Notes: generated from the sequence alone by a model not told the origin. A DNA stretch of 64,000 nucleotides from an uncultured Candidatus Poseidoniales archaeon (GCA_964342465.1 CAYFFQ010000004.1:95077-159076), one strand, 5' to 3'. Positions 14,392-63,107 are shown, numbered from the stretch's first letter. Program-made: numbers and translations.

Positions 14392-14500
14392 AGGTCGAAG
14401 TTGCGCTCCACACCCCAAGATGGGCAGACCTACCAACAAATCGGCTACCTATGTGGGAGGGTGTCGTAGTTGCGCTCCACACCCCCATCTGGGCAGACCT
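14392..14500. repeat. Two-copy direct repeat, 32-40 bp core, 69 bp period
   Basis: GTTGCGCTCCACACCCCAAGATGGGCAGACCT (14400-14431) versus GTTGCGCTCCACACCCCCATCTGGGCAGACCT (14469-14500). The copies differ only in the central AAGAT/CATCT. Intergenic, upstream of the TPR gene. Confidence 0.8.
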
Positions 14501-14617
14501 TTCAGTTCACGGACATCAAATGGACCACTCACCCCGTGGTGCAGGTTTCTACAATCGGCCGACCATATTTCAGAAGAGATGAAAGGGAGAAGTTCTCTCC
14601 ATCAATCAGTGGTGAGA

Positions 14618-14920
14618 ATGGCGGAGAAGGGTTGGGCCAACATCTACAATCTATCCGATAGTCAGATATCTGACCTCGATGAAGCTGAGAGAAGGATGGA
14701 GATGCATGACTTGACCGGTTCGGAGGAATTGTTGTTGACGATGTTGGAGCAGGATGCGGAGTGCATCCCAGTTCTGAGCAATCTTGGACACCTGTATGGG
14801 AAATACTTCACCGATTTCGAAAAGGCGATTGAGTACTATAGGAGAGTGCTTGAATTGGAGCCGGACAATGCTTGGGCGCGTGATGAGCGCCGCCGATACG
14901 AACGCTACGCCTCCTACTGA
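14618..14920 (+). CDS. Small TPR-repeat protein
   Basis: The C-terminal LSNLGHLYGKYFTDFEKAIEYYRRVLELEPDNAWA is a textbook TPR unit. Start set at ATG 14618 (MAEKGW; ATG 14579 also possible). The track's longer N-terminus (from 14384) is translated from the intergenic repeat. Confidence 0.6.
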   Translation: MAEKGWANIYNLSDSQISDLDEAERRMEMHDLTGSEELLLTMLEQDAECIPVLSNLGHLYGKYFTDFEKAIEYYRRVLELEPDNAWARDERRRYERYASY

Positions 14921-15126
14921 CGCTCTCTCTCCTGCAAACAGTGCCCACACCACATGCCTTGCGACCATTTTTCCGAGAAGCGCGGCTCAACCAGCCATTT
15001 CTCCTTGGCAGTAGAAAGGTGGGAGATAATCCTCTCCCCTCTCGGGGTGGATGGTCAACCTCTCATCTGTTGTCGTGGTGGTCACTGGTCAGCGCGCTGA
15101 GATTCACATACCCTTCACGACACTCG

Positions 15127-15366
15127 TCTGCTGTAGTAGGGTGACAACCACAAAACTACAACTTCCGGCAGAAAGGGGAGAAATCAGCGAGATACTCTGC
15201 TGAGATAGGGTGACAAACACAAACTACAACTTCCGGCAGAAAGGGGAGACATCAGTGAGATACTCTACTGAGATAGGGTGACAAACACAAACTACAACTT
15301 CCGGCAGAAAGGGGAGACATCAGCGAGATACTCTACTGAGATAGGGTGACAAACACAAACTACAAC
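15127..15366. repeat. Tandem repeat, 68 bp unit x ~3.5
   Basis: The unit GGGTGACAAACACAAACTACAACTTCCGGCAGAAAGGGGAGACATCAGCGAGATACTCTACTGAGATA recurs at 15139, 15208, 15276 and 15344 with few substitutions. It ends 26 nt before the ftsZ-like start. Confidence 0.9.
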
Positions 15367-15391
15367 CGCCTTCCACCCTCTCGGTTGGAAT

Positions 15392-16294
15392 GTGCATGAC
15401 GGAAGCATCCTAATCGCCGGTGTCGGTGGTCTTGGCTGTCAATGGGCGAAGAGGGCACACGCTCGTTGCCTGGATTCATGCGACCTGCTTTTGGTCGATG
15501 GCGACGACGAGTCATTCGAAGATTCTAGGCACGCACACTGCCTACCACTTGGGGAAGTTAGTGGGGCTGGGTGCGCCGGCCTTCCCGAACTCGCCTCTTC
15601 GCACTTCAAACGAGCGACGGCAATCATGGACAAGATTCTCGCTCCTGTTGAACTTTTGATACTACTGACCGGCCTCGGCGGTGGAGTAGGCAGCGGAGTA
15701 TCGGCAGCCTTGGCAGCGCAAGGCAAGGAGTCAGGGGCGCTGGTGATTTCAATTGCATCAATTCCATTCGAAGACCATCCGACGAGGAGGGAGATTGCGC
15801 AACCGGCATTCAACAGATTGGCTCGCTCATCCGATGTCTGTGCCGAGTTATCCTTAGACAGATTGGCTTGGCAGGCGCGCAGCCGCGGTACAGACTGGGC
15901 CACTCACCCTTCTTGGGTCGAAGAATTGGTCGAGGGTCTTGTACTCACTCTAGGGCAGGTGGGAATAATCAATCTCGACTTGATGGACCTACGCTCGGTG
16001 GTTCGCCACGGTGGGTCTGCGACGATGGTCGTGGCTGAAGGTGATGCGAATGACCCCGACACCCTCTTCCTCAAGGCGCTCGCCGCCCCACTGGCATCGA
16101 TGGATGTGTTGGGAGCGAAGGGCTGCCTGCTGCAATTGGAGGGTGGCCGTCAGATGACCATCTATCAGATGGAGCAGGTGGCGAATACATTCACCCGTGG
16201 CCTTGCTGAGGATGCGCAGGTGATTCTCGGCTCTCGACATAGCGAAGGCTTGGAAGGGCGAATGAGAGTCGTTGCTGTTATGAGCGGCCTGTAG
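15392..16294 (+). CDS. FtsZ/tubulin-superfamily GTPase, short divergent FtsZ homologue (no C-terminal tail)
   Basis: ILIAGVGGLGCQWA (G1 region), GLGGGVGSG (tubulin signature variant of GGGTGSG), IPFEDHPTRR, GIINLDLMDLRSVV (T7-loop region) and GAKGCLLQLEGG...VVAVMSGL follow the FtsZ domain order. GTG start. Confidence 0.7.
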   Translation: MHDGSILIAGVGGLGCQWAKRAHARCLDSCDLLLVDGDDESFEDSRHAHCLPLGEVSGAGCAGLPELASSHFKRATAIMDKILAPVELLILLTGLGGGVGSGVSAALAAQGKESGALVISIASIPFEDHPTRREIAQPAFNRLARSSDVCAELSLDRLAWQARSRGTDWATHPSWVEELVEGLVLTLGQVGIINLDLMDLRSVVRHGGSATMVVAEGDANDPDTLFLKALAAPLASMDVLGAKGCLLQLEGGRQMTIYQMEQVANTFTRGLAEDAQVILGSRHSEGLEGRMRVVAVMSGL

Positions 16295-16297
16295 TTT

Positions 16298-17779: not shown

Positions 17780-18136
17780 GAACCGGTGAGGTGGGTCATC
17801 ACCATTAAGTCCGATGGGCCGTCGGCAGATGTGGCTCGGTTATCTAAGGCGAAGCGTGGGAAGCGGCGCTGGGTCGGCCTCTCGATTCCGGATTCAATCT
17901 CAACCCGCGCCGACCTCAGAAAAGCATTGTCTCATTCCGAACTCTTCGGAGACGATTGGAAACTCGCAGATTTTTCACAAGGGAAAGCGATAGTCAGGAT
18001 ATCACTTTCGGCCTACAATACTCAGAAAGAGGAATTGATGCGAGGATTCGACGGCATCAAATCCCTTACAGCCTCAGGAAAAATCAGGTTGGTCAGGGAG
18101 AGACTGGGGTTGGAGAAACCACCACGCAGGAAGTAA
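17774..18136 (+). CDS. Probable RNase P protein component 2 (Pop5/Rpp14 family)
   Basis: AKRGKRRWVGLSI (matches the R..KRYI.F pattern of Pop5 N-termini), and the C-terminal IKSLTASGKIRLVRERLG resembles the SGTI+.a+ ending. ORF bounds are from the track (TTG). A GTG at 17786 or 17831 is a more likely true start. Confidence 0.5.
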   Translation: MHEPVRWVITIKSDGPSADVARLSKAKRGKRRWVGLSIPDSISTRADLRKALSHSELFGDDWKLADFSQGKAIVRISLSAYNTQKEELMRGFDGIKSLTASGKIRLVRERLGLEKPPRRK

Positions 18137-18254
18137 TTCGTCGCCCGAAGACGGACTTCACACTGGCGAAGTAGTCGGGGAAGGGGAAACCACGACGATG
18201 GAAGTACTTCGAGGAGAGGCAGAGAAATCAGTATAGACTGATTTAGCAATCGGC

Positions 18255-20828: not shown

Positions 20829-22154
20829 TCATTCACCTCCCCCGTAATAAAGAAGGTCAGTTCTTCCCACCAACTCCTTGACATTCTTGAGACCGAGTTT
20901 TCTGAGGATCTCTCGCAACCTTGATTGAACCGCCGTGTAGTAGTTGTCCAACCGCTTCACGGCCCACTCCAATTGCACCCACTCCTGCAGTTCGATGTCA
21001 GTCGTAGTCAGTCCCCAAGGGCACCCCCTACCTGATGGGCCGCCCTCGCAGTTGGAGCAGCGCGTACATCCAAGTGCCACCAAGTCACTGGTGCCAAGAA
21101 CCACTCCGTCCGCCCCGAGGGCAATCGCCTTGGCGATATCATCAGCGGTCCTGATTCCACCAGAAGCGATGAGGGTAACCTCGTCACGGACGCCCTCACT
21201 GATGAGGAACTTGTGAACTTTCGGAATCGCCAATTCTATTGGCATGGCTATATTCTTCTTCGCTATCTCTGGGGCGGCACCGGTCCCACCGAATCCACCA
21301 TCGAGATGAATGATGTGAGCGCCGGCATAATAGGAACCGACTGCCACCATGTCGACATCGTGCGGTGTTGATACCTTGACTGCAATCAGTGCATTCGGAT
21401 TGACCGTCTGAATCCAATCAATGTGCTTTGAGTGGTCTTCCACAGAATAGGTGGAATGGAATGGAAATGGGCTGAACAGACTGACAAAGGGAACCGAGCC
21501 GCGCATCTTGGCGACCTCTTCTCCAGCCTTGCTGGCGAGCAGGTGGCCTCCCAATCCCGGTTTGGCGCCCTGTGCGTACTTGAACTCCACAATCGGTGCT
21601 GCCTGAATGGCCCTCTCCTCGACACCGAAGTAGCCGGTAGCGACCTGAGTAATGACATGCTCCTTGCATTCATAGAGCTGTTCGGGATAACCCCCTTCAC
21701 CTGTTGACATGTAGGTGCCCCAATTCTTGGCGTGGCGAGCACGGGCTAACATGATGTTCACCGAGACAGAGCCGTACGACATTCCTCCTCCGTAGATGGG
21801 TATGGGTATTTCGAGTGTTTTCCTCTCATCACCTCGGCGGTTGAGTGTGATGCTGGTGTCAATGGTCTCATCTTCAGGTACCCAATTGACCTCATCGCTC
21901 ATCTTGAATGAGAGCCTGTCAAAGCCGCCGTCGCTATCTCCCGTCTTGAAATTGAGATGGTCGGGCATTTTTCCAGTGGATGCCATGTACCAGGTTGAAA
22001 GAATCAATTCGTCCGTCCAGCGAGCATCTCCGAGTGCGGGCGGTATCTCGAATTTCCCGAATGCACGAGCATCCATGCCACCATGCATCAGGTGGGTTGT
22101 GCTTTCAATCAGAGTCGCACTCGGTCTGACAGGTTCCTTGTTCATCGCCATCAT
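20829..22154 (-). CDS. Glutamate synthase FMN-binding (GltB domain 3-like) protein
   Basis: PIYGGGMSYGSVS, MSTGEGGYP, KYAQGAKPGLGGHLL, SPFPFHSTYSVEDH and LDGGFGGTGAAP are the hallmark motifs of the Glu_synthase FMN domain. A C-terminal Cys cluster CTRCSNCEGG...GCPWG is present. Confidence 0.8.
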   Translation of the reverse strand: MMAMNKEPVRPSATLIESTTHLMHGGMDARAFGKFEIPPALGDARWTDELILSTWYMASTGKMPDHLNFKTGDSDGGFDRLSFKMSDEVNWVPEDETIDTSITLNRRGDERKTLEIPIPIYGGGMSYGSVSVNIMLARARHAKNWGTYMSTGEGGYPEQLYECKEHVITQVATGYFGVEERAIQAAPIVEFKYAQGAKPGLGGHLLASKAGEEVAKMRGSVPFVSLFSPFPFHSTYSVEDHSKHIDWIQTVNPNALIAVKVSTPHDVDMVAVGSYYAGAHIIHLDGGFGGTGAAPEIAKKNIAMPIELAIPKVHKFLISEGVRDEVTLIASGGIRTADDIAKAIALGADGVVLGTSDLVALGCTRCSNCEGGPSGRGCPWGLTTTDIELQEWVQLEWAVKRLDNYYTAVQSRLREILRKLGLKNVKELVGRTDLLYYGGGE

Positions 22155-23692
22155 TCACCACTCCTCTGATATCCTTCGATGTCACCGAAAGCTTCTGCTT
22201 CGAGATGTGAACACCACATGGCTCGTCCGGTTTCTCCGCGGAGGCGACGCACTTCACGGATGCCCATGGCACCGAGAATTTCCAACAATTGGTCTCGCCA
22301 CGAACAAGAGAGATTGACCATTCTCTGCGTCGCCCAATCGCTCTCCATGTTTCTCGGCAACTTGGCTTTGTATCCCTGCCTTGATGAGATGTCTCCAGAC
22401 AGTCTCGCTTGTATCGCTACCAGTAGAGGGAGGTCAAGGGCCACCGCGTCCAATCCGCAGATGATGGCCTTAGGCAAGTGGTCGGCGGCGACAACGCCGC
22501 CGCTGTTCATCAGAGTGATTTTATCCCTCACACCGGCATCCAAGAGTGATTGGTGCGCTTCGAGCATGTTCTCCATCACGAATTTGCCACCGGCCATGCC
22601 GTGATTGTCAGAGATGAAGTGAATGACTGGTACACCAACTTCCACCATCTCTTGTAGACTGCTTCGCCAATTGGAATCAAAAGAGATGCGGACTCCTACT
22701 AGCAGGTCTGCGTCGCCACTCGCAGCGGCATCGTAGGCTGCTCGCTCCCAGCCATCGATTTCAACCATCCTTGTGCCGTTTCCGAATCGTCCGGCTGATG
22801 CCGCCTCGCCGAGCGGTAGAACAGGCACGACCGACGGGCCGGCCAATCGCTGTTTCCGTACCATCTCCGCCGGCAGCAGCGCTAGCGAGTCGATACGCTT
22901 CGCACAATCCGCCCACACCTCTGCCAATTGTGGGGTGAAGGCGGTCAGAGCGGGTGTATCAAGAATAAAAGGCACCTGAATCGTCATCATTTTCGGCCCT
23001 TGGCTGACGAGACCGCCTTCGCTGTCGAACCTAAGCGACATCGGTTTGCTACCGATGTCAACGACAGTGCTTATCAATTCGCGGCCATGTATTCCATCTC
23101 GGCTCGGCCGAACGATCTCCGACATGTCGGTAAACATTCCATCCCACCCACTGCCGCCGAAACGGCCGCGGTAACCTTGGCCTCGTACGGGCACACAACC
23201 CTTGCGCGCTTCTTCGTCGATGGTCGAGATAATCTTCTGGTTCATGTACGAATCACCGAGCGATAGTCTGGCAGGATTGGGGGTTATCTTGACGAACTCT
23301 GGGTGTTGAATGGTGCACCTCAGACACCCTACACACTTCTCTGGTTGGGGGGCGAATCCCCCGACTGGTCCAGAGAAGACACCGTATGTGCAGGGGCGTG
23401 AGAAAACGACATCCCATTGGCCGAAGTAGGTGAATGACTCCTTGAGAATCAATTTTGCGAGGCCGAATTTCCCGACCTTGACTAGGTAGCGGTTGGGGAG
23501 TGGTTGCTTGTCAGCGACCTCAAATGCATCGATGTGGTATCTGTGGTATTCTGAGGCCCTCTCTCGCGACTGCCGAGCAAACTCAGAGAAATCCAAGGAA
23601 TTCTTCTTTCCGCTCATCACCTCTTCCCCTTCAGATTCGCTCAGCAGTTGCATTGACCGCCCCCCATAGGGGGCGCTGGGAGCGCGCCCCAT
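22151..23692 (-). CDS. Glutamate-synthase-related protein (degenerate FMN/TIM-barrel-like paralogue with N-terminal Cys motif)
   Basis: CVGCLRC motif. GSGWDGMFTDMSEIVRPSRDGIHGRELISTVVDIGSKP resembles the entry region of the Glu_synthase domain, but the GEGG motif is absent. The stop overlaps the next gene start (ATGA at 22151-22154). The true start may be an internal Met (MQLLSE or MSGKKN). Confidence 0.5.
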   Translation of the reverse strand: MGRAPSAPYGGRSMQLLSESEGEEVMSGKKNSLDFSEFARQSRERASEYHRYHIDAFEVADKQPLPNRYLVKVGKFGLAKLILKESFTYFGQWDVVFSRPCTYGVFSGPVGGFAPQPEKCVGCLRCTIQHPEFVKITPNPARLSLGDSYMNQKIISTIDEEARKGCVPVRGQGYRGRFGGSGWDGMFTDMSEIVRPSRDGIHGRELISTVVDIGSKPMSLRFDSEGGLVSQGPKMMTIQVPFILDTPALTAFTPQLAEVWADCAKRIDSLALLPAEMVRKQRLAGPSVVPVLPLGEAASAGRFGNGTRMVEIDGWERAAYDAAASGDADLLVGVRISFDSNWRSSLQEMVEVGVPVIHFISDNHGMAGGKFVMENMLEAHQSLLDAGVRDKITLMNSGGVVAADHLPKAIICGLDAVALDLPLLVAIQARLSGDISSRQGYKAKLPRNMESDWATQRMVNLSCSWRDQLLEILGAMGIREVRRLRGETGRAMWCSHLEAEAFGDIEGYQRSGE

Positions 23693-23918
23693 CTTTAATC
23701 ATTGAGTAAGGGGCGTTCAATAATTTAACTCAACTTTGCTCAAACGAGCATTTATTGTGGGTTTGACCATTCATCCGTTCAAAAAACTGCTATTTCGCCT
23801 ATACATTGAGAGAAGTCCGAGCCAGCCTTGAAAACGCTTCTCCGCAGTTGGATATTTGCTTTCTGAGGGGGCGGCTCCAAGGGCGATATTCATGACATGA
23901 ACACTTCTCGGGTTAGTT

Positions 23919-24452: not shown

Positions 24453-24631
24453 CTTCTGCACAGAAGGGATAGGTTCGGAGTTCAAGGGCAGATTGTCGGG
24501 TTGGGGAGGTTCGCTTGCCCAGTGGACAACTCGGATGCCTTCCCTGCCGGCACTTCCATCGTCGCGCTGAGATTAACTCCTGCCGAGGATAATCGGCTCC
24601 GTTCAGAGTTGTGGAAGTTAGAGCCCCCCTC

Positions 24632-35687: not shown

Positions 35688-35688
35688 A

Positions 35689-40305: not shown

Positions 40306-41535
40306 TCAATCATCTCGCTTCTTGTAGGCGCGAGCAGTCCCTCGCCTGACATTGATTCTCAGATTCACACTCCTACGACCCTTCCTTTTCTTCGTCTTCT
40401 TCTCAGGGGTGTCTGCGGCATCCGGCTGATTGAGATGTTCGAGTCCACCAGAATCAAGGATTCTTGAAAGGTCGTCAAGCGTTAGCGCACCGCCGGTGGC
40501 AGCGTGTTTGCGTAATGTAGAGATGCGGATGCGAACTTTCCGCCCTCGTTTCTCATCACCTCTCCTGATGTTCAGGTATGCCTCAAGGCGACCGATCTCT
40601 CGCTTGTGATTCCGCCGCCGTTTGTGTTGTCTGTCCATCGTGGATGCCAATTTAGCAATGCTGTCATTCAGTTTTTCAACTTCCTTGAAATTGATGTCTA
40701 CACCCTCAAGTCGAGTAGATTTTGCGGCGGTGGTCTCTGCCATGTCCTGTTGTTCATCCTTTAGTTCATCCAACTTCTTCACGATTTCCTTCTGTGAGCG
40801 ATAGAGTTCAACCAATGTCTTGTGCAATTGTTCAGATTGTTTCTTCAATTTGTGCATTTCAATTAGTTCAAAGAAGAAAGAAAACCGCTGGATTTCAATC
40901 GGAAGGTGAGGTGCTGAAGTCGGCGGGTCTGGAACCTGAGTCAACTCATGGTAGGTTTTTCGCATCCTCTCTTCAATGACGAAAAGTGGTGGGGAAATCC
41001 GCTCGTTGATGCTGTCCCTTTCCCTCTTTATAGAGCCAATTTGGGAAGAACGTTCTCTCATCTCCCTGAACAGTTTTGTGCGTTCCTTGGACATGCCATG
41101 TGTCATGTTGAGGGCATTCCTCAACGCTTGGACTGTGGAAATCTGATTGCTCCTCTCCTGTTTGTTTGATTCTATCTGACTATCTAGCGCCCGCAGGTCA
41201 GATTTGTGTTCCTTGAGCATCTCTTCGATTTTGTGACTCTCTAATTCTCTGATGTCCGCGAACAGGTCTGCTTTGGACGAATCACGCCCCTGCTGAGGAT
41301 GTGAACCACCATCTCGCCGTTGGCGACCGCCGCCACCACTGCCGCGGCCACCACTCTGCCCACGGCCTCCGCCTCGCTGTTGGCGACCGCCGCGACCACT
41401 GCCGCGGCCACCACTCTGCCCACGGCCTCGACCGCCGCCACCACTCTGCCCACGGCCTCCGCCTCGCTGTTGGCGACCGCCGCCACCGTGACGGCGCCCG
41501 CCTCTCTCGGCCGGTGAATCGGAATCGTCACTCAT
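40306..41535 (-). CDS. Coiled-coil protein (COG1340-like), paralogue 2, with N-terminal RGG/GAR-like repeat region and basic C-terminal tail
   Basis: aa ~10-77 read GGRRHGGGGRQQRGGGRGQSGGGGRGRGQSGGRGSGRGGRQQRGGGRGQSGGRGSGGGGRQRRDGG, followed by ~300 aa of coiled coil. C-terminal GGALTLDDLSRILDSGGL motif and a KKTKKRKGRR tail. The start overlaps the upstream gene stop (41532-41535). Confidence 0.65.
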   Translation of the reverse strand: MSDDSDSPAERGGRRHGGGGRQQRGGGRGQSGGGGRGRGQSGGRGSGRGGRQQRGGGRGQSGGRGSGGGGRQRRDGGSHPQQGRDSSKADLFADIRELESHKIEEMLKEHKSDLRALDSQIESNKQERSNQISTVQALRNALNMTHGMSKERTKLFREMRERSSQIGSIKRERDSINERISPPLFVIEERMRKTYHELTQVPDPPTSAPHLPIEIQRFSFFFELIEMHKLKKQSEQLHKTLVELYRSQKEIVKKLDELKDEQQDMAETTAAKSTRLEGVDINFKEVEKLNDSIAKLASTMDRQHKRRRNHKREIGRLEAYLNIRRGDEKRGRKVRIRISTLRKHAATGGALTLDDLSRILDSGGLEHLNQPDAADTPEKKTKKRKGRRSVNLRINVRRGTARAYKKRDD

Positions 41536-45868: not shown

Positions 45869-45985
45869 TCGCAAGCAATCTTGGCGAATGGAAACCGAGT
45901 TCGCCAGCAATCTTGTCGACGGGAAACTGAGTTCGCCAGCAATCTTGTCGACGGGAAACCGAGTTCGCCAGCAATCTTGTCGACG
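45869..45985. repeat. Tandem repeat, 32 bp unit x ~3.7
   Basis: TCGCCAGCAATCTTGTCGACGGGAAACCGAGT at 45901 and 45933, a diverged copy at 45869 and a truncated copy at 45965. Each unit contains a SalI-like GTCGAC palindrome. Confidence 0.9.
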
Positions 45986-46039
45986 ACTGCGAAATGCGGT
46001 GATAGGACCGTGAGTGACGGACTCACTCGTCTCAATACC

Positions 46040-46305
46040 GATTGTTTGCGGCCAGTGAGGTGGAGTGCGTTATTCTTGCAGCGGACGACAGCGAGGGTGC
46101 GATTGTTTGTGGCCTCAGAGGTGGAGTGCGTTATTCTTGCAGCGGAAGACAGCGAGGGTGCGATTGTTTGTGTCCTCAGAGGTGGAGTGCGTAATTCTTA
46201 CAGCGGACGACAGCGAGGGTGCGATTGTTTGCGGCCTCAGAGGTGGAGTGCGTAATTCTTACAGCGGACGACAGCGAGGGTGCGATGGTTCACCCGCAGT
46301 GAGGT
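46040..46305. repeat. Tandem repeat, 61 bp unit x ~4.3
   Basis: GATTGTTTGCGGCC(A/T)(G/C)(T/A)GAGGTGGAGTGCGT(T/A)ATTCTT(G/A)CAGCGGACGACAGCGAGGGTGC starts at 46040, 46101, 46162 and 46223, with a degenerate copy at 46284. Ends ~50 nt before the paralogue-4 start. Confidence 0.9.
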
Positions 46306-46354
46306 GCAATTCCATAAGTCGCCTTGATATGGGGGGGGTGGCTCGGCGTGTGCG

Positions 46355-49120: not shown

Positions 49121-49137
49121 CTCTTCACTCTGCTGTC

Positions 49138-49312
49138 AGTCTCGCAACATGAAGGGGAATGGTCAGCGAGGCTGCTACTCTGTTCAGCGCTCCCGCCCGT
49201 CATCCGATATGACGGTGAAAGGTCCGCGAGGCGGCCACTCTGTTCAGCGCTCCCGCCCGTCACCCGATATGACGGTGAAAGGTCAGCGAGGCGGCCACTC
49301 TGTTCAGCCCTC
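49138..49312. repeat. Tandem repeat, 60 bp unit x ~2.9, each unit with a short hairpin
   Basis: The unit GGTCAGCGAGGCGGCCACTCTGTTCAGCGCTCCCGCCCGTCACCCGATATGACGGTGAAA occurs at 49151, 49211 and 49271 (truncated). The inverted repeat CCGTCAT-CCGAT-ATGACGG lies at 49187-49205. Confidence 0.9.
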
Positions 49313-49447
49313 CCGCCCGTCGCCCTATTATTGGGGGAAAAGTATTTTCAGGTCAGATGGTAATTGGTCACGATAGTCTCCGTGAAATGAACCTGGGCGC
49401 ACCGCCAACATTGATGAAAGGGAGTCATCTCGGCCGCTCTGATTGCG

Positions 49448-50431
49448 ATGGCGATTGACCTCAATGAGATGAGATACGGCACTGAACTGCTGAAGCGTGG
49501 CTTCGCCACGATGCAAGAAGGAGGCGTGATAATGGATGTTGTCACTCCCGAACAGGCGGCTGTTGCGGAGGATGCCGGAGCTAGTGCCGTGATGGCCCTT
49601 GAGAGAGTTCCTGCCGACATCCGAGCAGACGGAGGCGTCGCTCGAATGAGCCATCCGGACCTCATCAATGGAATCATGGAGACGACCAGCATTCCACTCA
49701 TGGCGAAAGCGAGAATCGGACATTCAGAGGAGGCGCGAGTCCTTGAATCCCTCGGTGTGGACATGGTGGATGAATCGGAGGTTCTCACCCCCGCAGACCC
49801 GTTTTTCCACATTCCAAAAAGGGATTTCACTATTCCGTTTGTCTGTGGCTGCACAAACCTTTGGGAGGCTGTGCGGAGAATCCACGAGGGCGCGGCGATG
49901 ATTAGAACCAAGGGGGAAGCCGGCACCGGCAATGTGGTCAGCGCAGTTCAACACGCAAGATTGGTGGCGCAAGAGATTGAGTGGTTGCAATCCTCAGATG
50001 AAGAGGAGTTCACGGATGCTGTCAGCGCCACGATGTCAGCATTCCTTCGCCTTGAGCAATCAAGTGAGGTTGAAATCGAAATGGTTCGGACTCCGTTCGG
50101 TACGGTTGATGAGTGCATCTCCGGAGTCGAGGAGATTCTGAACGACATTGTTCAGAGAGGGAGACTTCCCGTTGTCACCTTCTCAGCTGGCGGTATCGCC
50201 ACCCCTGCTGATGCAGCATTGATGATGAACCATGGAATGGATGGCATATTCGTCGGTTCTGGAATCTTCAAGTCGGAAGACCCCGAGACCACAGCGAGGG
50301 CGATAGTCCACGCCACCCAGCACTTCAGCGATCCTGATGCGATTGCTGAGGCGTGCGCCATGATGGCGGCACCGATGGTGGGTCTAGAGATAGATACCCT
50401 CGAAGTCAGGATGGAAGAGAGGGGTCACTGA
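49448..50431 (+). CDS. pdxS: Pyridoxal 5'-phosphate synthase, synthase subunit PdxS
   Basis: [76 protein letters not shown] and [13 protein letters not shown] form the full PdxS/SNZ signature set. Confidence 0.9.
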
Positions 50432-52557: not shown

Positions 52558-53088
52558 ATGCCCCTCCCCCTGCACAGGTTGGAGTATGTCGTTCACGCAT
52601 CTGGTCTCGCTGAAATCAACATAATATGCGATGCACTGGCTTGGCTGGTCGGTGACGAGAGACTGGTTGCGGTTGAAGAGACCAAATCATTTCACAACTC
52701 TCCACTCTACATCATTACCGCCACAAGCGCCAAGAAAGGAGATGCGAGAAGAGCCCTCCCACGCCTCGGGGAGAGAACTCTATCTCTTCTGGCCGGAGGA
52801 CTCGAATTGAGGTTGGATGAGGAGAACAACCTCCACTTTCGTCTAAGTCTCGATGAACTGGTGGCCGGCGAGATTGTTCTCATCAGCGCCACACACCCGA
52901 TGACTCCAGTGAAGGCAAAGTGCAAGTTGGAAGTCTATCCTCGGGATACGCCATTAGAGGTGGCGGCAACAATGCTTGCAGATGCGGCAGAGGTGGCACG
53001 GCGGAGAAATCTCCCCGAGAAACCTCCCCTGTATAGGATAACAGATGAGGAGCCCATTTCACATGAAAAAAATGAGAGCCCCACCTGA
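52558..53088 (+). CDS. DUF54/COG1931-like predicted RNA-binding protein
   Basis: LEYVVHASGLAE..ICDALAWLVG...EETKSFHNSPLYIITATSAKK...LELRLDEENNLHFRLSLDELVAGEIVL matches the ...RIDEE..LYLRLDKQ.A..G pattern I recall for this archaeal family. Unverified. Confidence 0.45.
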   Translation: MPLPLHRLEYVVHASGLAEINIICDALAWLVGDERLVAVEETKSFHNSPLYIITATSAKKGDARRALPRLGERTLSLLAGGLELRLDEENNLHFRLSLDELVAGEIVLISATHPMTPVKAKCKLEVYPRDTPLEVAATMLADAAEVARRRNLPEKPPLYRITDEEPISHEKNESPT

Positions 53089-53170
53089 TGACCCACTCCG
53101 CATGAAAACTCACCTGATGACCCACTTCACATCAACATGTGCGAGCACACCACCTGATGGCTCACTCCGC
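53082..53170. repeat. Three copies of a ~20 bp motif that includes the stop codon of the upstream gene
   Basis: CACCTGATGACCCACTCCGC (53082), CACCTGATGACCCACTTCAC (53111) and CACCTGATGGCTCACTCCGC (53151). The first copy contains the gene's TGA (53086-53088). Confidence 0.8.
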
Positions 53171-53335
53171 AGTATCATTCGCCTGAGACCCCTCTGGGAT
53201 AAACCAACTTAGGAAGCCAAATTGGTGAGAGGTTCCCCCCCTCTCCACACAACCATTCCGAGACTGGATTGCGCTACGGAGAAGATGAGTAAGTTCATAG
53301 ATGAGTGAGGGGCAGGGTCGCATTGAGGAATTGGA

Positions 53336-54115: not shown

Positions 54116-54173
54116 TGATGATGCGGCAACCCATCCAAAAAGGATGGCTGCTAGACGGGGCAGGCCGACTCGG

Positions 54174-54677: not shown

Positions 54678-54721
54678 GATTCATCGCCTCCTGCTGGTCG
54701 CTGTCGCTACGGTTTGAAGAA

Positions 54722-55516: not shown

Positions 55517-55588
55517 ACCGACGCCGAACCTCCCGCGTGTGAGCCGGCACTAAGAACAATGCGCTTCGCTCGCCGATTGCGTGAAGCC

Positions 55589-56368: not shown

Positions 56369-56527
56369 CGCTTCGTTGCGATACCTTCTCGGTATTGACG
56401 ATTGCTCCGTAGTGACATTCTGATGACTGGTTTCAACATCCGAACGGGAAAGTCCACTATAACCAACACACGACCTGTTGGTGGCTGAAAAAATCGCCAC
56501 TTTTCACTCTTTCATGGAGTGTTGACA

Positions 56528-56636
56528 GTATACGATTCCGAGAGTGTGTTGCATGTCGTTCCACGTGAGGGAACGGTGTGCCTTGTGGCGCGACCAGCGG
56601 TATACGATTCCGATAGTGTGTTGCATGTCGTTCCAC
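56528..56636. repeat. Two-copy direct repeat, 37 bp core, 72 bp period
   Basis: GTATACGATTCCGAGAGTGTGTTGCATGTCGTTCCAC (56528-56564) and GTATACGATTCCGATAGTGTGTTGCATGTCGTTCCAC (56600-56636), with 1 mismatch. The intervening 35 bp is unique. Confidence 0.85.
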
Positions 56637-56744
56637 CGCTCCCTTGATGGGGGGTTCTCGCTTCGCCATCTTGTGAATGGTCATTTCACCAGCGCAGTGC
56701 AACTGCGACGGCACAACAATACGCCCCTTCCCGTATCCGCCCTC

Positions 56745-57890: not shown

Positions 57891-58082
57891 GCACGATTAC
57901 AGTTTGATTCGATATGGTCAAATTTCCCGCACCGACTGGTTGCCACCCGAGTCATACGCTGATTTATCGTCGTGGGTGGTGAAGGAGAGCCGTGGATAGG
58001 AGTCAGGTGCATTTCGCGCTAAGGAGCGGTTGCGGGTTGAGGTGCACGGTCTGGCTGCGGGGTGCATGCAGATATCGTGCAT

Positions 58083-58220
58083 GGGTGATGGTGCCTCGCC
58101 CAAGAGAAGAAATGGTGGTTCGCCAAAGAGCGGGTGACGGTGGCTCGGTTAGGAGCGGGTGATGGTGATTCTCCCAAGAGCAGGAGATGTTGGCTCGGTT
58201 AGGAGCGGGTGATGGTGGCT
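58083..58220. repeat. ~25 bp degenerate tandem array reiterating the 3' end (including stop codon) of the adjacent minus-strand gene
   Basis: GCTCGGTTAGGAGCGGGTGATGGTG occurs exactly at 58143-58167 and 58193-58217. The latter copy contains the gene's TAA (58199-58201). Diverged ~25 bp copies lie between and beyond, back to ~58083. Confidence 0.8.
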
Positions 58221-59269
58221 CCCGCAGCCGTCAGTCGCTCGATGATGACACCCAGCCCACCGATGTACTCATCGGGTGAGACGACCCCCGAGATTTCACC
58301 CCTAATCAGTGCCTCACAGGCGACGATGAACGGAATCCCCGTGGCAATTGCCATCGACGGCCAGAGGCGGCCGGCCTCCCGGTCAATTCCAGGGATGTCA
58401 AACTCCCATCGTATCACTTCTCCAGCAATATCGGTGAAGGTGATATCCATGTAGGTGAATTCACCAATGCAGGTCTCCCATGCCCATTGCTGAACGAGGT
58501 CATCCGCACTGATACCGCCGTTATCTCGGAGTCGGATGAATTTCTCGATATGGCCCGGCCAGCGCACTGTATATTCGGTCAGTGATTGAGCTGTCACCTT
58601 CCGATTCTGCAAGAGTGACCGTAATCCATCAGTCAGGAACGCCTCCATTCTTCCGCGACAGCCAGCCTCGAAGAGATGTCTGTCGCTGAGAGCAGGAACT
58701 TCTCTGGTTTCCCCATCCACCCGAATCCGTGCCGGTCGCCTGTATTCGGCGAGCACATCCGTTGGAGAAAATGGAGCACAGTACGACCACCCGTCGTCGG
58801 GATGAACAGGATTGCCGCCGACCCTGATTCTAATCGAACGCATCGGCGCCCTTCCCGCCTGCTCACTCACAACAATCATGTTGGAGACACCCGGAGCGAT
58901 TCCACAGTCGTGAATCATCGCTGCGCCCCTCTCCTCTGCGAGAGGGGCGAATCGCTCAGCCCTCTCGCCGCTGAAGGCGAGGTCGCAAACCGTAGCACCA
59001 GCAGAAATCAACGGTTCTCTGAGCGAATCCCCGATATCCCCCGGTAACAGATTGAGAATCAAGTCGTATGATTCCAAATCACATTGTTCAAGGAAAATGA
59101 AGGCATCCTTCTCTACGATTTTGAATGTGAGTCCATCCCTCACCTCCCGAAGAAGCGGCACCGCCTGATGGTTCAAGGCAACGGCAGTGACGGTATGTCC
59201 GGCTTCTTGCAATTGCTGACAGATGTATGTGCCGACCAGTCCTGCTCCGAAGGAGAGTATGTCGGCCAT
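58199..59269 (-). CDS. Saccharopine dehydrogenase-like NAD(P)-binding oxidoreductase
   Basis: From ATG 59269: MADILSFGAGLVGTYICQQLQEAGHTVTAV (Rossmann GxGxxG), DLILNLLPG, and HDCGIAPGVSNMIV, typical of the Sacchrp_dh family. The ORF extends to 59347. Confidence 0.6.
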   Translation of the reverse strand: MADILSFGAGLVGTYICQQLQEAGHTVTAVALNHQAVPLLREVRDGLTFKIVEKDAFIFLEQCDLESYDLILNLLPGDIGDSLREPLISAGATVCDLAFSGERAERFAPLAEERGAAMIHDCGIAPGVSNMIVVSEQAGRAPMRSIRIRVGGNPVHPDDGWSYCAPFSPTDVLAEYRRPARIRVDGETREVPALSDRHLFEAGCRGRMEAFLTDGLRSLLQNRKVTAQSLTEYTVRWPGHIEKFIRLRDNGGISADDLVQQWAWETCIGEFTYMDITFTDIAGEVIRWEFDIPGIDREAGRLWPSMAIATGIPFIVACEALIRGEISGVVSPDEYIGGLGVIIERLTAAGATITRS

Positions 59270-59609
59270 GAGTTGGGCGATACAGCCCCTTCTTAATAAT
59301 GCGACTTTTACCTCCTGAGCGATAACCTTCGGTTCTGGTGATACCACCCCCTCAATTCCCTCCTAACGGTCTGACCAACAAGGTCTTGTGAGAGATAAAC
59401 ACGATACCTCTCTCTCAGAGCGCGCCGCGATTTGTTGGGTGAAACCCCCAAGGGTCTGCTCTGACGACCCTCCACCCGTGTGGGGAATAGGTGGGTGAGA
59501 GGCGGAATTTGCCAACTAGCACCCTCCAACTGTTTGGCGAATTGGTCGTGTTGAAGTTCTTGAGCCGTAGCATTCATGCGACTGGTGCCTACGAGACCGT
59601 ATCGGGGAT

Positions 59610-60998
59610 ATGATGGGAGAGGACGTTTCAATCGACCCGTGGTCATCCGATGTCTCGACGGACTATGCAAAGATGATAGCACAATTCGGGCTGGAAGCCA
59701 TTGACCCCTCTCTGCTCCCGAGCCCCTCGATGCTGCACAGAAGAGGAATCGTTTTCGCCCACAGGGACCTGAATCTTGTATTGGATGCCCATGCGGGGAG
59801 CGACCCTTTTGGAGTACTTACCGGACTGATGCCTTCTGGCAGGATGCACCTCGGTCACAAGATGGTCATAGACCAAGTAAAGTGGTTTCAGGAGCGCGGC
59901 GGGGATGTGACTATCGCGGTGGCGGACCTCGAAGCACATGCGACGCGAGGACTTTCACTGACCGAGTGTAGAAGAACAGCACTTGATGAGTATGTGACGA
60001 ACTACGCTGCACTCGGCCTTGATGTCGAGAAAACCTCGGTATATTTCCAATCCATGCGGCCGATAGTTCAGAGACTCGGTTTTACTCTCGGCAAGAGAAC
60101 AAACCTATCGGAATTTGAAGCTATCTATGGGTTCAGAGGAGATACAAATCTCGCCCATGTTCAGGCTCCTCTGGTTCAAGCTGGAGACATTCTACATCCA
60201 CAATTAGACGAGTATGGCGGACTCAGGCCGATAGTTGTACCTGTTGGGGTGGACCAAGACCCACACCTGCGGCTGACGCGGGGGCTGGCGGCAAAGACGA
60301 ACTGGTTCAACATCAAATCAAGAAAATCCGGTGGGCTGTCCATCGGCCTCTCCATTCAGGACGAAAATGCATCTGCCTTGGGGGTGGTTGAAGGTGGGCG
60401 GATAGACAAGAGTATCCGTCAATCCGTTTTCGCGAAATTGACCAACGCACTTCAGCGGCTGGGATTTAGCGACATCAACTCCAATCCGAAGCATGGATTG
60501 ATTGAGATTCCTGCGGCCACAGGTCGCGACCGCGACCTGATAAGGCCGGAACTTCTTCGATTGGAACGGCAAATGGGTGGACTCGGTCTGCTTCAGCCGT
60601 CGTCCACATACCACCAGTTTGCCATCGGGATGACAGGTGACAAGATGTCATCGAGCAGACCGGAGACCACAATCTTCCTGACCGAGGATGTCGCAAAAAT
60701 GGAGAAGAAGGTGAAATCCTCATTCTCTGGTGGTCAGCCGACCCTAGAAGAACACAGGAGATTGGGGGGGGACCCTGAAATCGATGTCGCTTTCCAATAT
60801 CTTAGATATTTCTTTGAGGACGATGACAAAGCCCTCACTGAGGTGGAATCTGGTTACCGAAGCGGCGAGATTCTCACCGGACAGATGAAACAACTTTGCA
60901 TCGACAAGGCCGCTGATTACCTGACCAATCTCAAGGAGATGAGGGACCAGACGGCGCACATCGTGGAAGAATTTCTCGCCGATGATGCTAGCCTCTGA
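59610..60998 (+). CDS. trpS: Tryptophan--tRNA ligase (archaeal/eukaryotic type) with ~95 aa insertion
   Basis: DPWSSDVSTDYAKMIAQFG (TrpRS N-terminal pattern), the HIGH-type motif PSGRMHLGH and the KMSKS-type motif DKMSSS. 462 aa versus the usual ~370-390. Confidence 0.8.
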   Translation: MMGEDVSIDPWSSDVSTDYAKMIAQFGLEAIDPSLLPSPSMLHRRGIVFAHRDLNLVLDAHAGSDPFGVLTGLMPSGRMHLGHKMVIDQVKWFQERGGDVTIAVADLEAHATRGLSLTECRRTALDEYVTNYAALGLDVEKTSVYFQSMRPIVQRLGFTLGKRTNLSEFEAIYGFRGDTNLAHVQAPLVQAGDILHPQLDEYGGLRPIVVPVGVDQDPHLRLTRGLAAKTNWFNIKSRKSGGLSIGLSIQDENASALGVVEGGRIDKSIRQSVFAKLTNALQRLGFSDINSNPKHGLIEIPAATGRDRDLIRPELLRLERQMGGLGLLQPSSTYHQFAIGMTGDKMSSSRPETTIFLTEDVAKMEKKVKSSFSGGQPTLEEHRRLGGDPEIDVAFQYLRYFFEDDDKALTEVESGYRSGEILTGQMKQLCIDKAADYLTNLKEMRDQTAHIVEEFLADDASL

Positions 60999-61025
60999 AA
61001 TCCCTCACCGTATTGGCGGTTCATG

Positions 61026-61191
61026 GCCAGGCGGGGCTTTCGGGGTCGCCTCCGGTTGAGGGTCGAACGGGGGTTTTGAGGCCGCTTAGGGGGAGAGGCC
61101 ACCTCGGATTGGTAGGTCGAACGGTGGTTTTGAGGCCAGACGGGACTTTCGGGGTCGCCTCGGGTTGAGAGGACAAACAGGCTATTTGGAA
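61026..61191. repeat. Degenerate tandem repeat, ~55 bp unit x 3
   Basis: GGCCAGGCGGGGCTTTCGGGGTCGCCTCCGGTTGAGGGTCGAACGGGGGTTTTGA (61026), a diverged middle copy (61081) and GGCCAGACGGGACTTTCGGGGTCGCCTCGGGTTGAGAGGAC... (61135). Confidence 0.75.
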
Positions 61192-61347
61192 GGAAGACAG
61201 ACAAGCCATCGAGGGACATGGGGACTGTGCGGTGGTGAAGATGATGCCGTCTAGTGCTTGAATTCCTGCATCCTTTATCAACGGTGCCATCCCATTACTG
61301 TTTATGGTAGGATGGGGAATAATCGTCAATCCACCACTGCTGGGGAG

Positions 61348-61866
61348 ATGAAACAGATGGACAGAATAGAAGAGATATTTGACAGAAATGAAATCAGAGC
61401 GGAGTTCAAGGATGGCGGTATTTATAACAACAAATATTCGTTATTCACTTATATTATGGAAAATTGCAATGTGGGTTGCCAATTGCACTACGATGAAGAG
61501 GGGAGCAAAACGACTTTGTTTTCATCCCCTGTAGGGTTGAAACTACCCGATAAAAGAAGGATTGAAGTCGTGATGTTGGCCAACGAATTCAACAGACATC
61601 CATATCCAGCTGTTGCGATGGTGGTTGAATCGGTTGGGGATCTAGTGTATTGGATGAAGGCAACGAGTCCCGGGGTGGAAGAACTCTCTGAAGTTGAGGT
61701 CTTGGAATGGATAAATGAATCAACACTAGCCCATAATTTTGTCTATCCAGCGGTGATGAAGGTCGTCCATGGTGAAATGTCAGCACTTGAGGCGTGGAAA
61801 TCCATCATGGGTGGTCCTGAACAGAGCGAGACAGACACAGACACTTCGAACCCGATGTTCGGCTGA
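61348..61866 (+). CDS. Hypothetical protein (possibly YbjN/T3SS-chaperone-like fold), AT-rich 5' half
   Basis: 172 aa from ATG 61348, preceded by GGGGAG. No diagnostic motif. The fold guess rests only on size and the pattern LANEFNRHPYPAVAMVV. Confidence 0.4.
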   Translation: MKQMDRIEEIFDRNEIRAEFKDGGIYNNKYSLFTYIMENCNVGCQLHYDEEGSKTTLFSSPVGLKLPDKRRIEVVMLANEFNRHPYPAVAMVVESVGDLVYWMKATSPGVEELSEVEVLEWINESTLAHNFVYPAVMKVVHGEMSALEAWKSIMGGPEQSETDTDTSNPMFG

Positions 61867-61885
61867 GTCACTAGAACGGAGTGTA

Positions 61886-62524
61886 TCAATCGCCCTCGAA
61901 GACGAGAGATTTCGGTCCCGGCTCCAGTTCACCGATTTCCTCGTCTGTCAGTTCCCTCTCCTCGACATCAGCGTGAGCGATGATGCTGTGACCCTTGGGG
62001 TCAAGAATCTCTACGGTGAGGTCCCCCATGAGTGAGCCATCTCGTAGGGCCGTCAGTGCCAACTCCAACTGGATGAGCATACCCAATCGCTGCTCACCTT
62101 CTCCACTCTCATCACCGTCATGCAGTTCTTCCGCCAGTTGTCGCATCATCATCTGGATGATGTCAATGAACCGCTTGACCACACCCTCGACATTACTCAC
62201 ATAACCGGTTGCTTGAGTTCCCGGAGCAACTTCAAGGTCGAGTTCAGGAATCCTGATGGTGCCCGAAGCACCTCTCACAACTCTGGCAAGTAGGTGTTCT
62301 TCCTTGTCAACTAGCAGCGAGTGAGCGAGAGCCCCTCGCTCTTCAGCCGGAATGAAATCGGTCTGCCGCATTCCGCAAGAATTGCAACTCAGTGTGATTT
62401 GCGTGTGTTCGCCGAAATATGGGATTTCAGATGAATGAGACAGCAGTTTCAGAACTCCTTCCTCCTGACAGGTGGGACAGGGAAAATCGATATCACTCTC
62501 CACTCGCTCACCCGCCATGTTCAT
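61886..62524 (-). CDS. ZPR1-type zinc-finger protein
   Basis: CPTCQEEGVLKLLSHSSEIPYFGEHTQITLSCNSCGMRQTD (C4 ZPR1 finger) followed by VRGASGTIRIPELDLEVAPGTQATGYVSNVEGV, the ZPR1 A-domain pattern. Start at ATG 62524 or 62518. The ORF extends to 62587. Confidence 0.75.
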   Translation of the reverse strand: MNMAGERVESDIDFPCPTCQEEGVLKLLSHSSEIPYFGEHTQITLSCNSCGMRQTDFIPAEERGALAHSLLVDKEEHLLARVVRGASGTIRIPELDLEVAPGTQATGYVSNVEGVVKRFIDIIQMMMRQLAEELHDGDESGEGEQRLGMLIQLELALTALRDGSLMGDLTVEILDPKGHSIIAHADVEERELTDEEIGELEPGPKSLVFEGD

Positions 62525-62981
62525 GGACTTCGCGGTCCAAACCCTCAAGTCCGACCACAGTTGGAGGGAGGATGAGCACTCGTTCATCCCCTAGTTGAAG
62601 AAGCGAGCCGCCCAAATCGCCTTTGACAAATTTAGTGATGTGTTCTATAGCAGTATTCAACTCGAAATTGCGGTCAATGATATTCCCCAATTCGACGATC
62701 ACCACACTACCATCAGCGGCCCAATCCAGTATTGATTCCAGTCCGTTCACATCGTGCAGAACCGCCCTTTGAACAACGGTTTCCCCGATTTTCCTTGGCA
62801 CTGGCGCGTGAGGATATAGTTGTGCTAGGTCGTGGTAGACCTGACCTGGTGCTGGGCGTGGCATTTCTCCGTCGTGTTGGCTTGGAATGTCCAGCCATTT
62901 CGGCCCCTCACTTCGCTCTTCGTCCATCTTCATCTCGCTGGGGGGTCGCCATATCCCATAACCAATTGCATCCGACCACAC
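62508..62981 (-). CDS. sepF: SepF-like cell division protein (DUF552)
   Basis: The C-terminal VQRAVLHDVNGLESILDWAADGSVVIVELGNIIDRNFELNTAIEHITKFVKGDLGGSLLQLGDERVLILPPTV fits the SepF core (..D...i.d.l..g..Vi.nL...). The start is uncertain (62981, 62933 or 62927). Confidence 0.6.
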   Translation of the reverse strand: MWSDAIGYGIWRPPSEMKMDEERSEGPKWLDIPSQHDGEMPRPAPGQVYHDLAQLYPHAPVPRKIGETVVQRAVLHDVNGLESILDWAADGSVVIVELGNIIDRNFELNTAIEHITKFVKGDLGGSLLQLGDERVLILPPTVVGLEGLDREVHEHGG

Positions 62982-63002
62982 TATCGGGAAGCCATTTCTA
63001 TT

Positions 63003-63107
63003 GCTGAATCAGAATGGCAGGTTGGTGCTGTGTGGTGGGTCAGAGTAGGGGCAGGTATCGGCGGAGTAGCCGCTGAATCAGAATGGCAGGTTGGTGCTGT
63101 GTGGTGG
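63003..63107. repeat. Two-copy perfect direct repeat, 36 bp core, 69 bp period
   Basis: GCTGAATCAGAATGGCAGGTTGGTGCTGTGTGGTGG occurs at 63003-63038 and again at 63072-63107, separated by a unique 33 bp. It lies between the divergent sepF and psmB genes. Confidence 0.9.

Follow-up and report, generated by a model that had tools for sequence, protein, structure and literature searches.

Among bacterial minisatellites, or variable-number tandem repeats (VNTRs), the mycobacterial MIRUs are a single sequence family that comes in a few fixed lengths and occupies some tens of loci. In REP/BIME elements and MITEs, one sequence that contains terminal or internal palindromes is scattered in many copies. 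The described case closest to the one reported here is that of the pervasive tandem repeats in Borg elements of Methanoperedens (Schoelmerich et al., 2023, PMC9879509); in the passages of that paper that concern them, the repeats are perfect, are enriched in adenine on the coding strand, have at least three units which are short (examples 18–21 nt), and reside on giant linear extrachromosomal elements. Here we describe repeats in a stretch of 64,000 nucleotides from an uncultured Candidatus Poseidoniales archaeon (GCA_964342465.1, CAYFFQ010000004.1:95077-159076; "the window" denotes this whole stretch, and positions are counted from its first letter) and in the rest of its genome. An earlier note, made from the sequence of the window, had listed ten intergenic loci with short direct or tandem repeats between positions 14,392 and 63,107. 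We think it rather probable that these ten loci are a sample of a genome-wide and lineage-specific set of young, mutually unrelated duplications in non-essential DNA, which a process that measures length and is blind to sequence would have produced and selection would have filtered. The arrays most likely have no sequence-specific function.

Abundance, spacing and anatomy of the repeat loci

All ten loci were recovered in the window by Tandem Repeats Finder (TRF) together with a direct-repeat search. Genome-wide, TRF returned 413 merged arrays, 366 of them with a period of at least 20 bp, which amounts to one per 6 kb and 2.8% of the genome, while a block-shuffled genome gave two TRF rows. The density is therefore well above expectation, a point on which the earlier note had made its case depend. 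With genes called by our own caller (1621 genes, 86.6% coding), 253 of the 366 arrays are intergenic, 92 coding and 21 mixed. An offset scan, that is, a TRF-free search for self-matches at every offset from 15 to 159 bp which also catches loci with fewer than two copies, found 424 loci after removal of a false 155-bp class, 322 of them intergenic. Arrays make up about 16% of the intergenic DNA and account for most of the excess gap length of the genome; their median match is 90–94% and their median copy number 2.1–2.7.

The clustering of periods at 60–72 bp that the earlier note had pointed out was borne out genome-wide and is sharper than seen in the window, with peaks at 61 bp (27 loci) and at 68–72 bp (71 loci). 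TRF and the offset scan, two independent detectors, gave the same period peaks for intergenic loci. Periods between 20 and 58 bp show an even background of about 2 loci per bp. The 27 loci at 61 bp form a spike, compared with 9 at 60 bp and 8 at 62 bp, which is followed by a trough of 4–6 loci per bp at 63–67 bp; the second peak comprises 13, 16, 21, 10 and 11 loci at 68, 69, 70, 71 and 72 bp, and from 73 bp upward there are at most 4 per bp. Relative to a local background of 1.9 loci per bp, the Poisson P is 4e-22 for the count at 61 bp and 2e-15 for that at 70 bp. Period peaks are lacking at 90 and 120 bp, and an excess at 31, 41, 51, 81 or 91 bp is absent, the peaks being unrelated to a k-mer series. 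The spacing is thus fixed at 61 bp or 68–72 bp whatever the sequence, and such a lock on length with a free sequence suggests a mechanism, so far undescribed, by which length is measured irrespective of sequence.

That the units are mutually unrelated and do not represent a single dispersed family, as first noted for the ten loci, holds in the window and genome-wide. An all-against-all BLAST of the 366 units produced 17 small clusters, nearly all of them from the same locus or from contig-end joins, and 178 of 204 units have no second copy in the genome. No k-mer enrichment over 51 and 71 units survived multiple testing except for one borderline 8-mer, which probably stems from double-counted loci. 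A source of the units was looked for in the flanking DNA and elsewhere in the genome and was not found. The G+C content of the units is 56.4%, compared with 52.5% in other intergenic DNA, and their sense-strand composition (A 22%, T 21%, G 28%, C 29%) is without strand bias relative to the flanking genes. Growth of the 61- and 70-bp units from shorter units was considered and rejected, since internal sub-repeats are nearly lacking (3 of 36 units in the 61-bp class and 3 of 56 in the 70-bp class), unlike in the class of 40–57 bp (13 of 43). Dispersed repeat families of the REP, MITE or MIRU kind were rejected as well, because the loci share no sequence similarity with one another. The sole true dispersed family of this genome is a GC-rich palindromic (hairpin) element found at seven loci, several of them clustered on contig C8:

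C8 (39317, 52770, 67593), C12 (31442), C24 (1), C29 (10715), C5 (85): CGAAGGGGGCGAACCCCCCTTTCAAA-like element

Young loci have a characteristic anatomy. At 47 intergenic loci with periods of 55–76 bp and 1.3–1.6 copies, two copies of a repeated segment (r) enclose a different segment (X), with abrupt edges; we refer to this arrangement as r-X-r. The r copies are 96.6% identical, 20 pairs being perfect, and the r segments are all different among the 47 loci. X is 28.7% identical to the DNA after the second r and 26.7% to the DNA before the first, values to be compared with 25.6% for random segments. Since X resembles neither neighbour, the r-X-r loci are not decayed two-copy arrays, and we rejected this origin for the 1.5-copy loci. 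In the 68–72 bp class, r measures 34.5±2.9 bp and X 35.5±3.3 bp (20 loci with r of 30–40 bp). At a period of exactly 61 bp, X shrinks from 41 to 30 bp as r grows from 20 to 31 bp, and their sum stays constant. Because r and X vary and their sum does not, the fixed quantity is the offset, i.e., the length of DNA added. Arrays of at least two copies have 2.0–2.2 copies in about half of the cases and n+0.3 to n+0.6 copies in about the other half, fractions of 0.7–0.9 being depleted. Duplication by microhomology only was rejected in view of the broad distribution of fractional copy numbers, which has its mode at 0.4–0.5.

The arrays in the window and in related genomes

The source genome is a metagenome-assembled genome (MAG) of the Poseidoniales (Marine Group II), of 2.2 Mb in 45 contigs and 89.6% complete. 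An rpoB-rpoA'-rpoA'' operon of the archaeal type lies inside the window; its RpoB is 87–89% identical to those of four Poseidoniales (Marine Group II) MAGs, and the array-bearing chromosome carries rpoB and ribosomal protein genes. In the collections searched the species is represented by one project only (PRJEB17505), and the JGI metagenomes and GTDB species genomes contained no closer relative, with maximum identities of 62–69% for the DUF7121 protein and 89% for RpoB. The closest relative is G001 (MAG 81% complete), with whose contig C4 the window is collinear. The G+C content of this species is about 54%, compared with 44–47% in the sampled congeners (G001, G005, G011 and G016), and that of its intergenic DNA is close to that of its genes (52.5% vs 54.2%). 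With a G+C content above that of its congeners and intergenic DNA nearly as G+C-rich as the genes, the lineage shows a shift that points to a changed mutational regime.

The ten loci of the window fall into five tandem arrays, three repeat pairs, one interleaved pair and one loose triple, to which a coding array can be added as a counterpart:

14394-14500: repeat-spacer-repeat; two 38-nt copies (89% identity) at a distance of 69 bp, enclosing an unrelated 31-nt segment; divergent gap 14187-14617
15127-15366 (TRF 15137-15366): tandem array; 68 bp x3.4–3.5, 96% matches
45869-45985: tandem array; 32 bp x3.7, 92% matches; directly 3' of the stop of a DtxR-family gene; reproduced in contigs L137 and L206
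46039-46343: tandem array; 61 bp x4.1 to 46290 (93%), plus a degenerate fifth copy (67%) to 46343
49130-49343 (TRF 49149-49325): tandem array; 60 bp x3, 91%; upstream of pdxS (49448-50431)
53074-53195: loose triple, the weakest of the ten; a segment of about 25–50 nt with the core CACCTGATGACCCACT at irregular spacings of 29 and 40 bp
56528-56636: repeat-spacer-repeat; two 37-nt copies (97% identity) at a distance of 72 bp, enclosing an unrelated 35-nt segment; divergent gap 56369-56744
58083-58236 (TRF 58112-58221): tandem repeat with nested periods of 25 and 50 bp; convergent gap, the repeat extending into the 3' end of the minus-strand gene 58199-59347
61025-61169: two interleaved direct repeats, one with copies of 36 nt (92%) at a distance of 109 bp and one with copies of 23 nt (96%) at 54 bp; 3' of the stop of gene 59610-60998
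63003-63107: repeat-spacer-repeat; two 36-nt copies (perfect identity) at a distance of 69 bp, enclosing an unrelated 33-nt segment
41282-41507, minus strand: coding array; 15/30/60-bp repeats, a period that is a multiple of 3, giving the Gly/Arg-rich N-terminus of protein 40306-41535

The array at 15127-15366 ends 26 nt 5' of the GTG of an FtsZ-family gene (15392-16294), and a conserved promoter-proximal 18-mer (46316-46333) stands after the 61-bp array and before the ATG at 46355. A candidate ATG (63083) lies inside the second copy of the 63003-63107 locus, and the loose triple overlaps the stop of gene 52558-53088. Copies are 100, 83 and 74% identical to the reference copy in the array upstream of pdxS, and 100, 60 and 72% in the loose triple. 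The protein with the coding array (40306-41535, minus strand) is a coiled-coil protein with a low-complexity Gly/Arg-rich region at residues about 10–77; its G001 orthologue aligns from residue 82 only, which makes the repeat region lineage-specific.

Six array-bearing gaps are comparable between the two genomes, and all are longer here than in G001, by 142–477 bp: 431 against 186 bp around the 14394 locus, 471 against about 67 bp around the 15137 array, 526 against 49 bp between dtxR and the DUF7121 gene, 376 against 118 bp around the 56528 locus, 308 against about 48 bp around the 58083 array and 194 against about 52 bp around the 63003 locus. Gaps without arrays are mostly near-equal in the two (90/90, 67/67, 168/168, 349/356 and 14/14 bp, here and in G001). 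In ten genomes of the same genus the dtxR-DUF7121 gap measures 47–50 bp, with the same orientation of the genes, and in six further genomes about 58 bp lie between the matches; no array was present in the region upstream of pdxS in 29 relatives. The pieces that are conserved with G001 are promoter-proximal, for example AAG(A/T)CGCCTTGATATGGG just 5' of the ATG at 46355, and the arrays lie outside them. Likewise, 59 bp adjoining the left gene of the 14187-14617 gap are conserved, and the repeat is found outside those 59 bp. An origin of the units from the ancestral gap was accordingly rejected, only promoter-proximal bits outside the arrays being alignable to G001. The density of loci per 10 kb is 1.98 in this genome, 0.74 in G001 (0.62 without scaffold-join artefacts), 0.39 in G005, 0.06 in G016 and 0.1–0.2 in three other genera. 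Loci of the 61- and 70-bp classes number 142 here; 500 kb of G001 contained five, and about 690 kb from five other genomes contained none. Compared with every relative that we examined, the arrays are derived insertions. Three further gaps of the window are longer than in G001 and have no detectable repeat (59348-59609, 262/30 bp; 24453-24631, 179/3 bp; 18137-18254, 118/10 bp); these may be decayed arrays or other insertions.

The statement in the earlier note that most loci lie immediately 5' of a gene start applies loosely within the window; genome-wide, stop codons are nearer than start codons. The median distance to a stop codon is 60 bp, with 29% of the loci overlapping it or within 20 bp, and the median distance to a start codon is 121 bp, with 8% within 20 bp. 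Of the gaps of at least 200 bp, 56 of the 85 convergent ones contain a locus, as do 111 of the 241 codirectional and 30 of the 117 divergent ones; the share of bases that loci occupy in the three groups is 29%, 19% and 10.5%, respectively. This placement is the expected residue of position-blind insertion followed by purifying selection.

Repeats of this kind might be produced by assembly or scaffolding, and arrays that collapse or vary randomly in re-assemblies would be a sign of it. We compared the SPAdes-type MAG with MEGAHIT k127 (ENA) and Logan k31 assemblies made per run for eight runs (ERR2281799-806), from which contigs were retrieved through exact protein matches. Neither collapse nor random variation was seen, and the arrays were reproduced without indels in the MEGAHIT and Logan contigs. 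Per-run contigs are 99.9–100% identical to the window, with zero indels over 45869-46305, 49138, 53074, 56528 and 58083 and few single-nucleotide polymorphisms (SNPs) in arrays. The array upstream of pdxS has two SNPs and is otherwise identical in 10 spanning contigs (of 17 fetched from MEGAHIT and Logan), the loose triple is reproduced in every covering assembly, the 56528 locus in L200-L203, the 58083 array has one SNP and zero indels across assemblies, and the gaps of the 14394 and 15137 loci are of identical length in ENA contig L246. Coding arrays, moreover, have periods divisible by 3 in 88 of 92 cases (TRF) and in 75 of 76 (offset scan); intergenic loci are free of this bias (95/112/115). 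Frame preservation in genes and avoidance of promoters are signatures of selection, and the arrays are therefore not an assembler product.

Arrays do interfere with assembly. A called array abuts 29 of the 69 scaffold gaps and 17 of 90 contig ends lie inside an array; as arrays limit assembly in this way and near-perfect ones are mostly at most 195 bp long, some copy numbers may be lower bounds. An artefactual origin could appeal to these broken contigs and to near-perfect arrays that approach the resolution limit of short reads, to the 69 N-gaps of the MAG (68 of 100 N and one of 10 N) and to the many joins that keep a 55-bp overlap and so create the false 155-bp "period". Yet three assemblers and eight runs yield identical arrays, the copies of which are separated by real substitutions, the arrays in genes are in frame and avoid promoters elsewhere, and no peaks occur at assembler k values. 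We regard such an origin as extremely improbable, and agreement across assemblers and the signatures of selection largely refute it. The 55-bp overlaps flank 100 N at scaffold joins, in G001 as well, and require masking in repeat scans; it follows from them that the MAG comes from a k=55 graph assembly.

Taken together, these data suggest that a duplication or insertion process adds a fixed length, 61 or about 70 bp, at essentially random places. Its product would be either a plain tandem duplication (2.0–2.2 copies) or, in the r-X-r form, a local duplicate of 20–40 bp that follows about 30–40 bp of new sequence. The copy number would then be shifted up or down by slipped-strand mispairing or by unequal recombination among the copies. 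Purifying selection would remove hits on promoters or reading frames and leave the survivors concentrated 3' of genes, between convergent genes and on the upstream side of conserved promoter cores. Candidates for the ruler are the adaptation integrase of a CRISPR-Cas locus, described below, and, as pure conjecture, a nucleoprotein at the replication fork around which DNA, single- or double-stranded, would be wrapped. Replication-slippage hot spots, an alternative named in the earlier note, would explain changes in copy number, as in a 62-bp array beside the CRISPR-Cas locus that has three units in the assembly of one run and five in that of another, but they cannot account for the locked period or the r-X-r loci.

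Several points weigh against the proposal of young, length-measured duplications without sequence-specific function. A purely neutral process does not account for the exact spacing, and simple slippage cannot produce the r-X-r loci, in which X has kept no similarity to its neighbours (see the identities above). The arrays of the window are fixed, with zero indel variants in eight runs, and are less variable than fast-slipping minisatellites should be. The evidence consists of assemblies, in which copy numbers of near-perfect arrays may be collapsed, and it comes from one project, with no closer relative in the collections searched. Finally, the sequence by itself would also be compatible with a function that depends on length or spacing only, such as that of a spacer or insulator.

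The resident CRISPR-Cas locus and other candidate machinery

An r-X-r unit of about 35+35 bp has the geometry of a CRISPR, and for this reason a search for Cas1 (PF01867) was undertaken. One Cas1 was found, on contig C35, and none in 40 other Poseidoniales genomes. C35 (L231:1-7453; L232:4098-10942) encodes a C2c1/Cas12b-like protein of 1475 aa, a Cas4-Cas1 fusion of 548 aa and Cas2, a gene set which we take to be a type V-B arrangement. The ENA contig L232 links C35 to the end of the chromosomal contig C8. The G+C content of the Cas island is 41–48% and that of its flanks 52–57%, and the gaps beside the island carry 61-, 62- and 70-bp arrays. The CRISPR on C35 has a 35-nt repeat and a 36-nt spacer, hence a period of 71 bp; the repeat is confined to C35 in this genome, and the C35 locus is the only true CRISPR. 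Its leader-proximal spacer differs between assemblies, which suggests active adaptation, and L233 has a 61-nt "spacer"; a search of IMG/VR for exact matches to two genuine spacers returned none. All assemblies of the locus show a second copy of the last 34 bp of cas2, stop codon included, 71 bp further downstream (L231:431-535), with an unrelated insert of 37 bp in between, and this looks like a spacer integrated at the end of cas2. The idea that the repeat loci are themselves CRISPR arrays was rejected, because their "spacer" parts repeat too (whole units 91–100% identical) and a common repeat does not exist.

The resident Cas4-Cas1 fusion and Cas2, from a recently acquired type V-B locus, might nevertheless have seeded the loci chromosome-wide by off-target integration of spacers. 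A spacer of about 35 bp would be inserted, staggered cleavage would duplicate about 35 bp of the target (or about 26 bp, one helical turn less), giving about 70 or 61 bp, and recombination between the duplicated flanks would amplify the units into tandem arrays. Off-target Cas1-Cas2 integration that results in repeat-spacer-repeat units ("neo-CRISPR") is on record for E. coli (Nivala, Shipman and Church, 2018, as treated in a passage of PMC6698737).

The lengths agree with this in part. The resident period of 71 bp falls within the 68–72 bp peak, 47 true r-X-r loci exist, whose r and X lengths in the 68–72 bp class match the resident 35/36 bp, and the two period classes are 9–10 bp apart, about one helical turn; but at 61 bp r varies from 20 to 31 bp with a fixed sum, which is the opposite of what a repeat-length ruler would give. 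One r-X-r is built on the very end of cas2 and the leader-proximal spacer is variable, whereas about half of the arrays with at least two copies have 2.0–2.2 copies and no long partial repeat, and the recurrence of the same X across the units of multi-copy arrays would require a second process. In favour, array DNA has no counterpart in the ancestral gap, but X is like r in its G+C content (56.6% vs 57.6%), a source of X was not found in the genome, and by eye the r sequences are unlike the CRISPR repeat. Cas1 occurs in this genome alone of 41 Poseidoniales, in a locus physically joined to C8; G001, however, has five loci of 61–72 bp and no Cas1 in its 81%-complete MAG, the correlation comes from one genome, and the genuine spacers lack an exact counterpart in IMG/VR. 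On this evidence we hold an integrase origin of the loci to be unlikely.

The earlier note had put forward, as speculation, that periods near 60–72 bp are compatible with phased binding of a chromatin or regulatory protein, archaeal histone tetramers covering about 60 bp. Phased histone binding found no support, as the genome contains no histone-fold gene and its units lack an A/T periodicity of about 10 bp (lag 10). Neither this genome nor any of the 17 high-quality Poseidoniales genomes has PF00808, the sole match among the 41 genomes being marginal and the controls positive, so that histone phasing is unsupported in what appears to be an order without histone genes. HU (PF00216) was not found in this genome, which has one Alba gene. 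Positioning arrays for histones (hypernucleosomes) were rejected on the same grounds and for want of peaks at 90 and 120 bp.

The arrays could still act as functional spacing or architectural elements, either as phased platforms for a nucleoid or regulatory protein with a footprint of 61 or 70 bp or as insulators that separate transcription units, with selection acting on length and not on sequence. The sharply conserved period with free sequence would fit such a role, and so would the presence of loci in two thirds of the long convergent gaps, the fixation of arrays over eight samples and the single Alba gene. Against these stand the missing histone and HU genes, the lack of both 10-bp A/T phasing and a common motif, and the relatives, in which the same gene pairs are separated by gaps of 47–190 bp with no arrays; many loci have 1.3–1.5 copies and leave nothing to phase, and their positions look like "wherever it does no harm". 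An architectural role therefore strikes us as quite unlikely.

Small RNA genes, also put forward in the earlier note, did not stand up to analysis. The units are less stably folded than other intergenic DNA (median z −0.23 vs −0.66, Mann-Whitney P = 2e-4), and an Rfam search of the window at gathering thresholds returned one tRNA and nothing else. For the intergenic repeats of Borgs, a role as small RNA genes or as cis-regulatory RNA repeats has been proposed; such a role here would be in keeping with short hairpins in some units, e.g., CCGTCA..TGACGG in the 60-bp unit at 49149, and with the many arrays in 3' regions, which are probably transcribed. The weak folding, the lack of any Rfam family besides the tRNA, the unrelated unit sequences and the absence of strand bias relative to the flanking genes make an RNA function hardly credible. 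Separately, ARAGORN predicted a tRNA-Arg(ACG) of 91 nt at 22672-22762 (minus strand), inside the coding region 22151-23653, which Rfam did not confirm and which is probably a false positive.

Significance and comparison with known repeat systems

In the library searched, we found no paper on tandem repeats in Poseidoniales or Marine Group II and none that cites PRJEB17505. The intergenic DNA of prokaryotes tends to be short, under a bias towards deletion. In the free-living marine archaeon studied here, several hundred young duplications have made the gaps nearly twice as long as those of the closest relative, and no sequence feature explains their length rule. So sharp a ruler, blind to sequence, implies that a defined molecular machine or nucleoprotein geometry acts on DNA in vivo, the footprint of which would have been recorded hundreds of times. 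If the ruler were an intermediate of replication or repair, the arrays would offer a handle on the DNA metabolism of archaea in an uncultured and globally abundant group. If it were the CRISPR integrase, ectopic units would have been amplified until the intergenic DNA of the lineage had roughly doubled, and this would be natural, genome-scale collateral damage of CRISPR adaptation, supplying new non-coding DNA and the raw material of new CRISPR arrays; it would also be the first natural evidence of adaptation modules remodelling host chromosomes at scale. In practical terms, contig breaks and scaffold gaps of this MAG are often due to arrays, and gene callers that extend open reading frames across arrays will be misled.

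Among the described systems, MIRUs and other VNTRs resemble the loci reported here in being intergenic tandem repeats of 40–100 bp with few copies, the number of which is driven by slippage. Unlike MIRUs, each locus here has its own sequence, and there is about one locus per 5 kb. With REP/BIME elements and MITEs the loci have in common that they are short and non-coding and often lie behind genes and in convergent gaps, but the family structure of those elements is missing.

A likeness to neo-CRISPR units lies in an r of about 35 bp and an X of about 35 bp at 47 loci, in a period equal to the 71 bp of the resident CRISPR and in the presence of Cas4-Cas1 and Cas2. In E. coli, off-target products reportedly consist of a 28-bp duplication and a 33-bp spacer. 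Unlike CRISPR and neo-CRISPR, the arrays described here have identical "spacers" within each array, an r that is not constant at a fixed period, neither a leader nor a common repeat, and a second class at 61 bp.

The likeness to Borg repeats extends further, as far as the relevant passages of their description go (Schoelmerich et al., 2023). Both comprise hundreds of arrays with unique units, intergenic as well as genic and in frame within genes, that are confined to one genome and virtually absent from relatives; in both, partial repeats flank the arrays while the middle part is not found in the flank, and arrays end contigs and are collapsed by assemblers. Unlike in Borgs, the copies here are 85–100% identical and mostly number 1.3–4, they show neither base nor strand bias, and they are chromosomal. 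No length lock is mentioned in those passages of PMC9879509, whereas the spacing in this archaeon is locked at 61 or about 70 bp.

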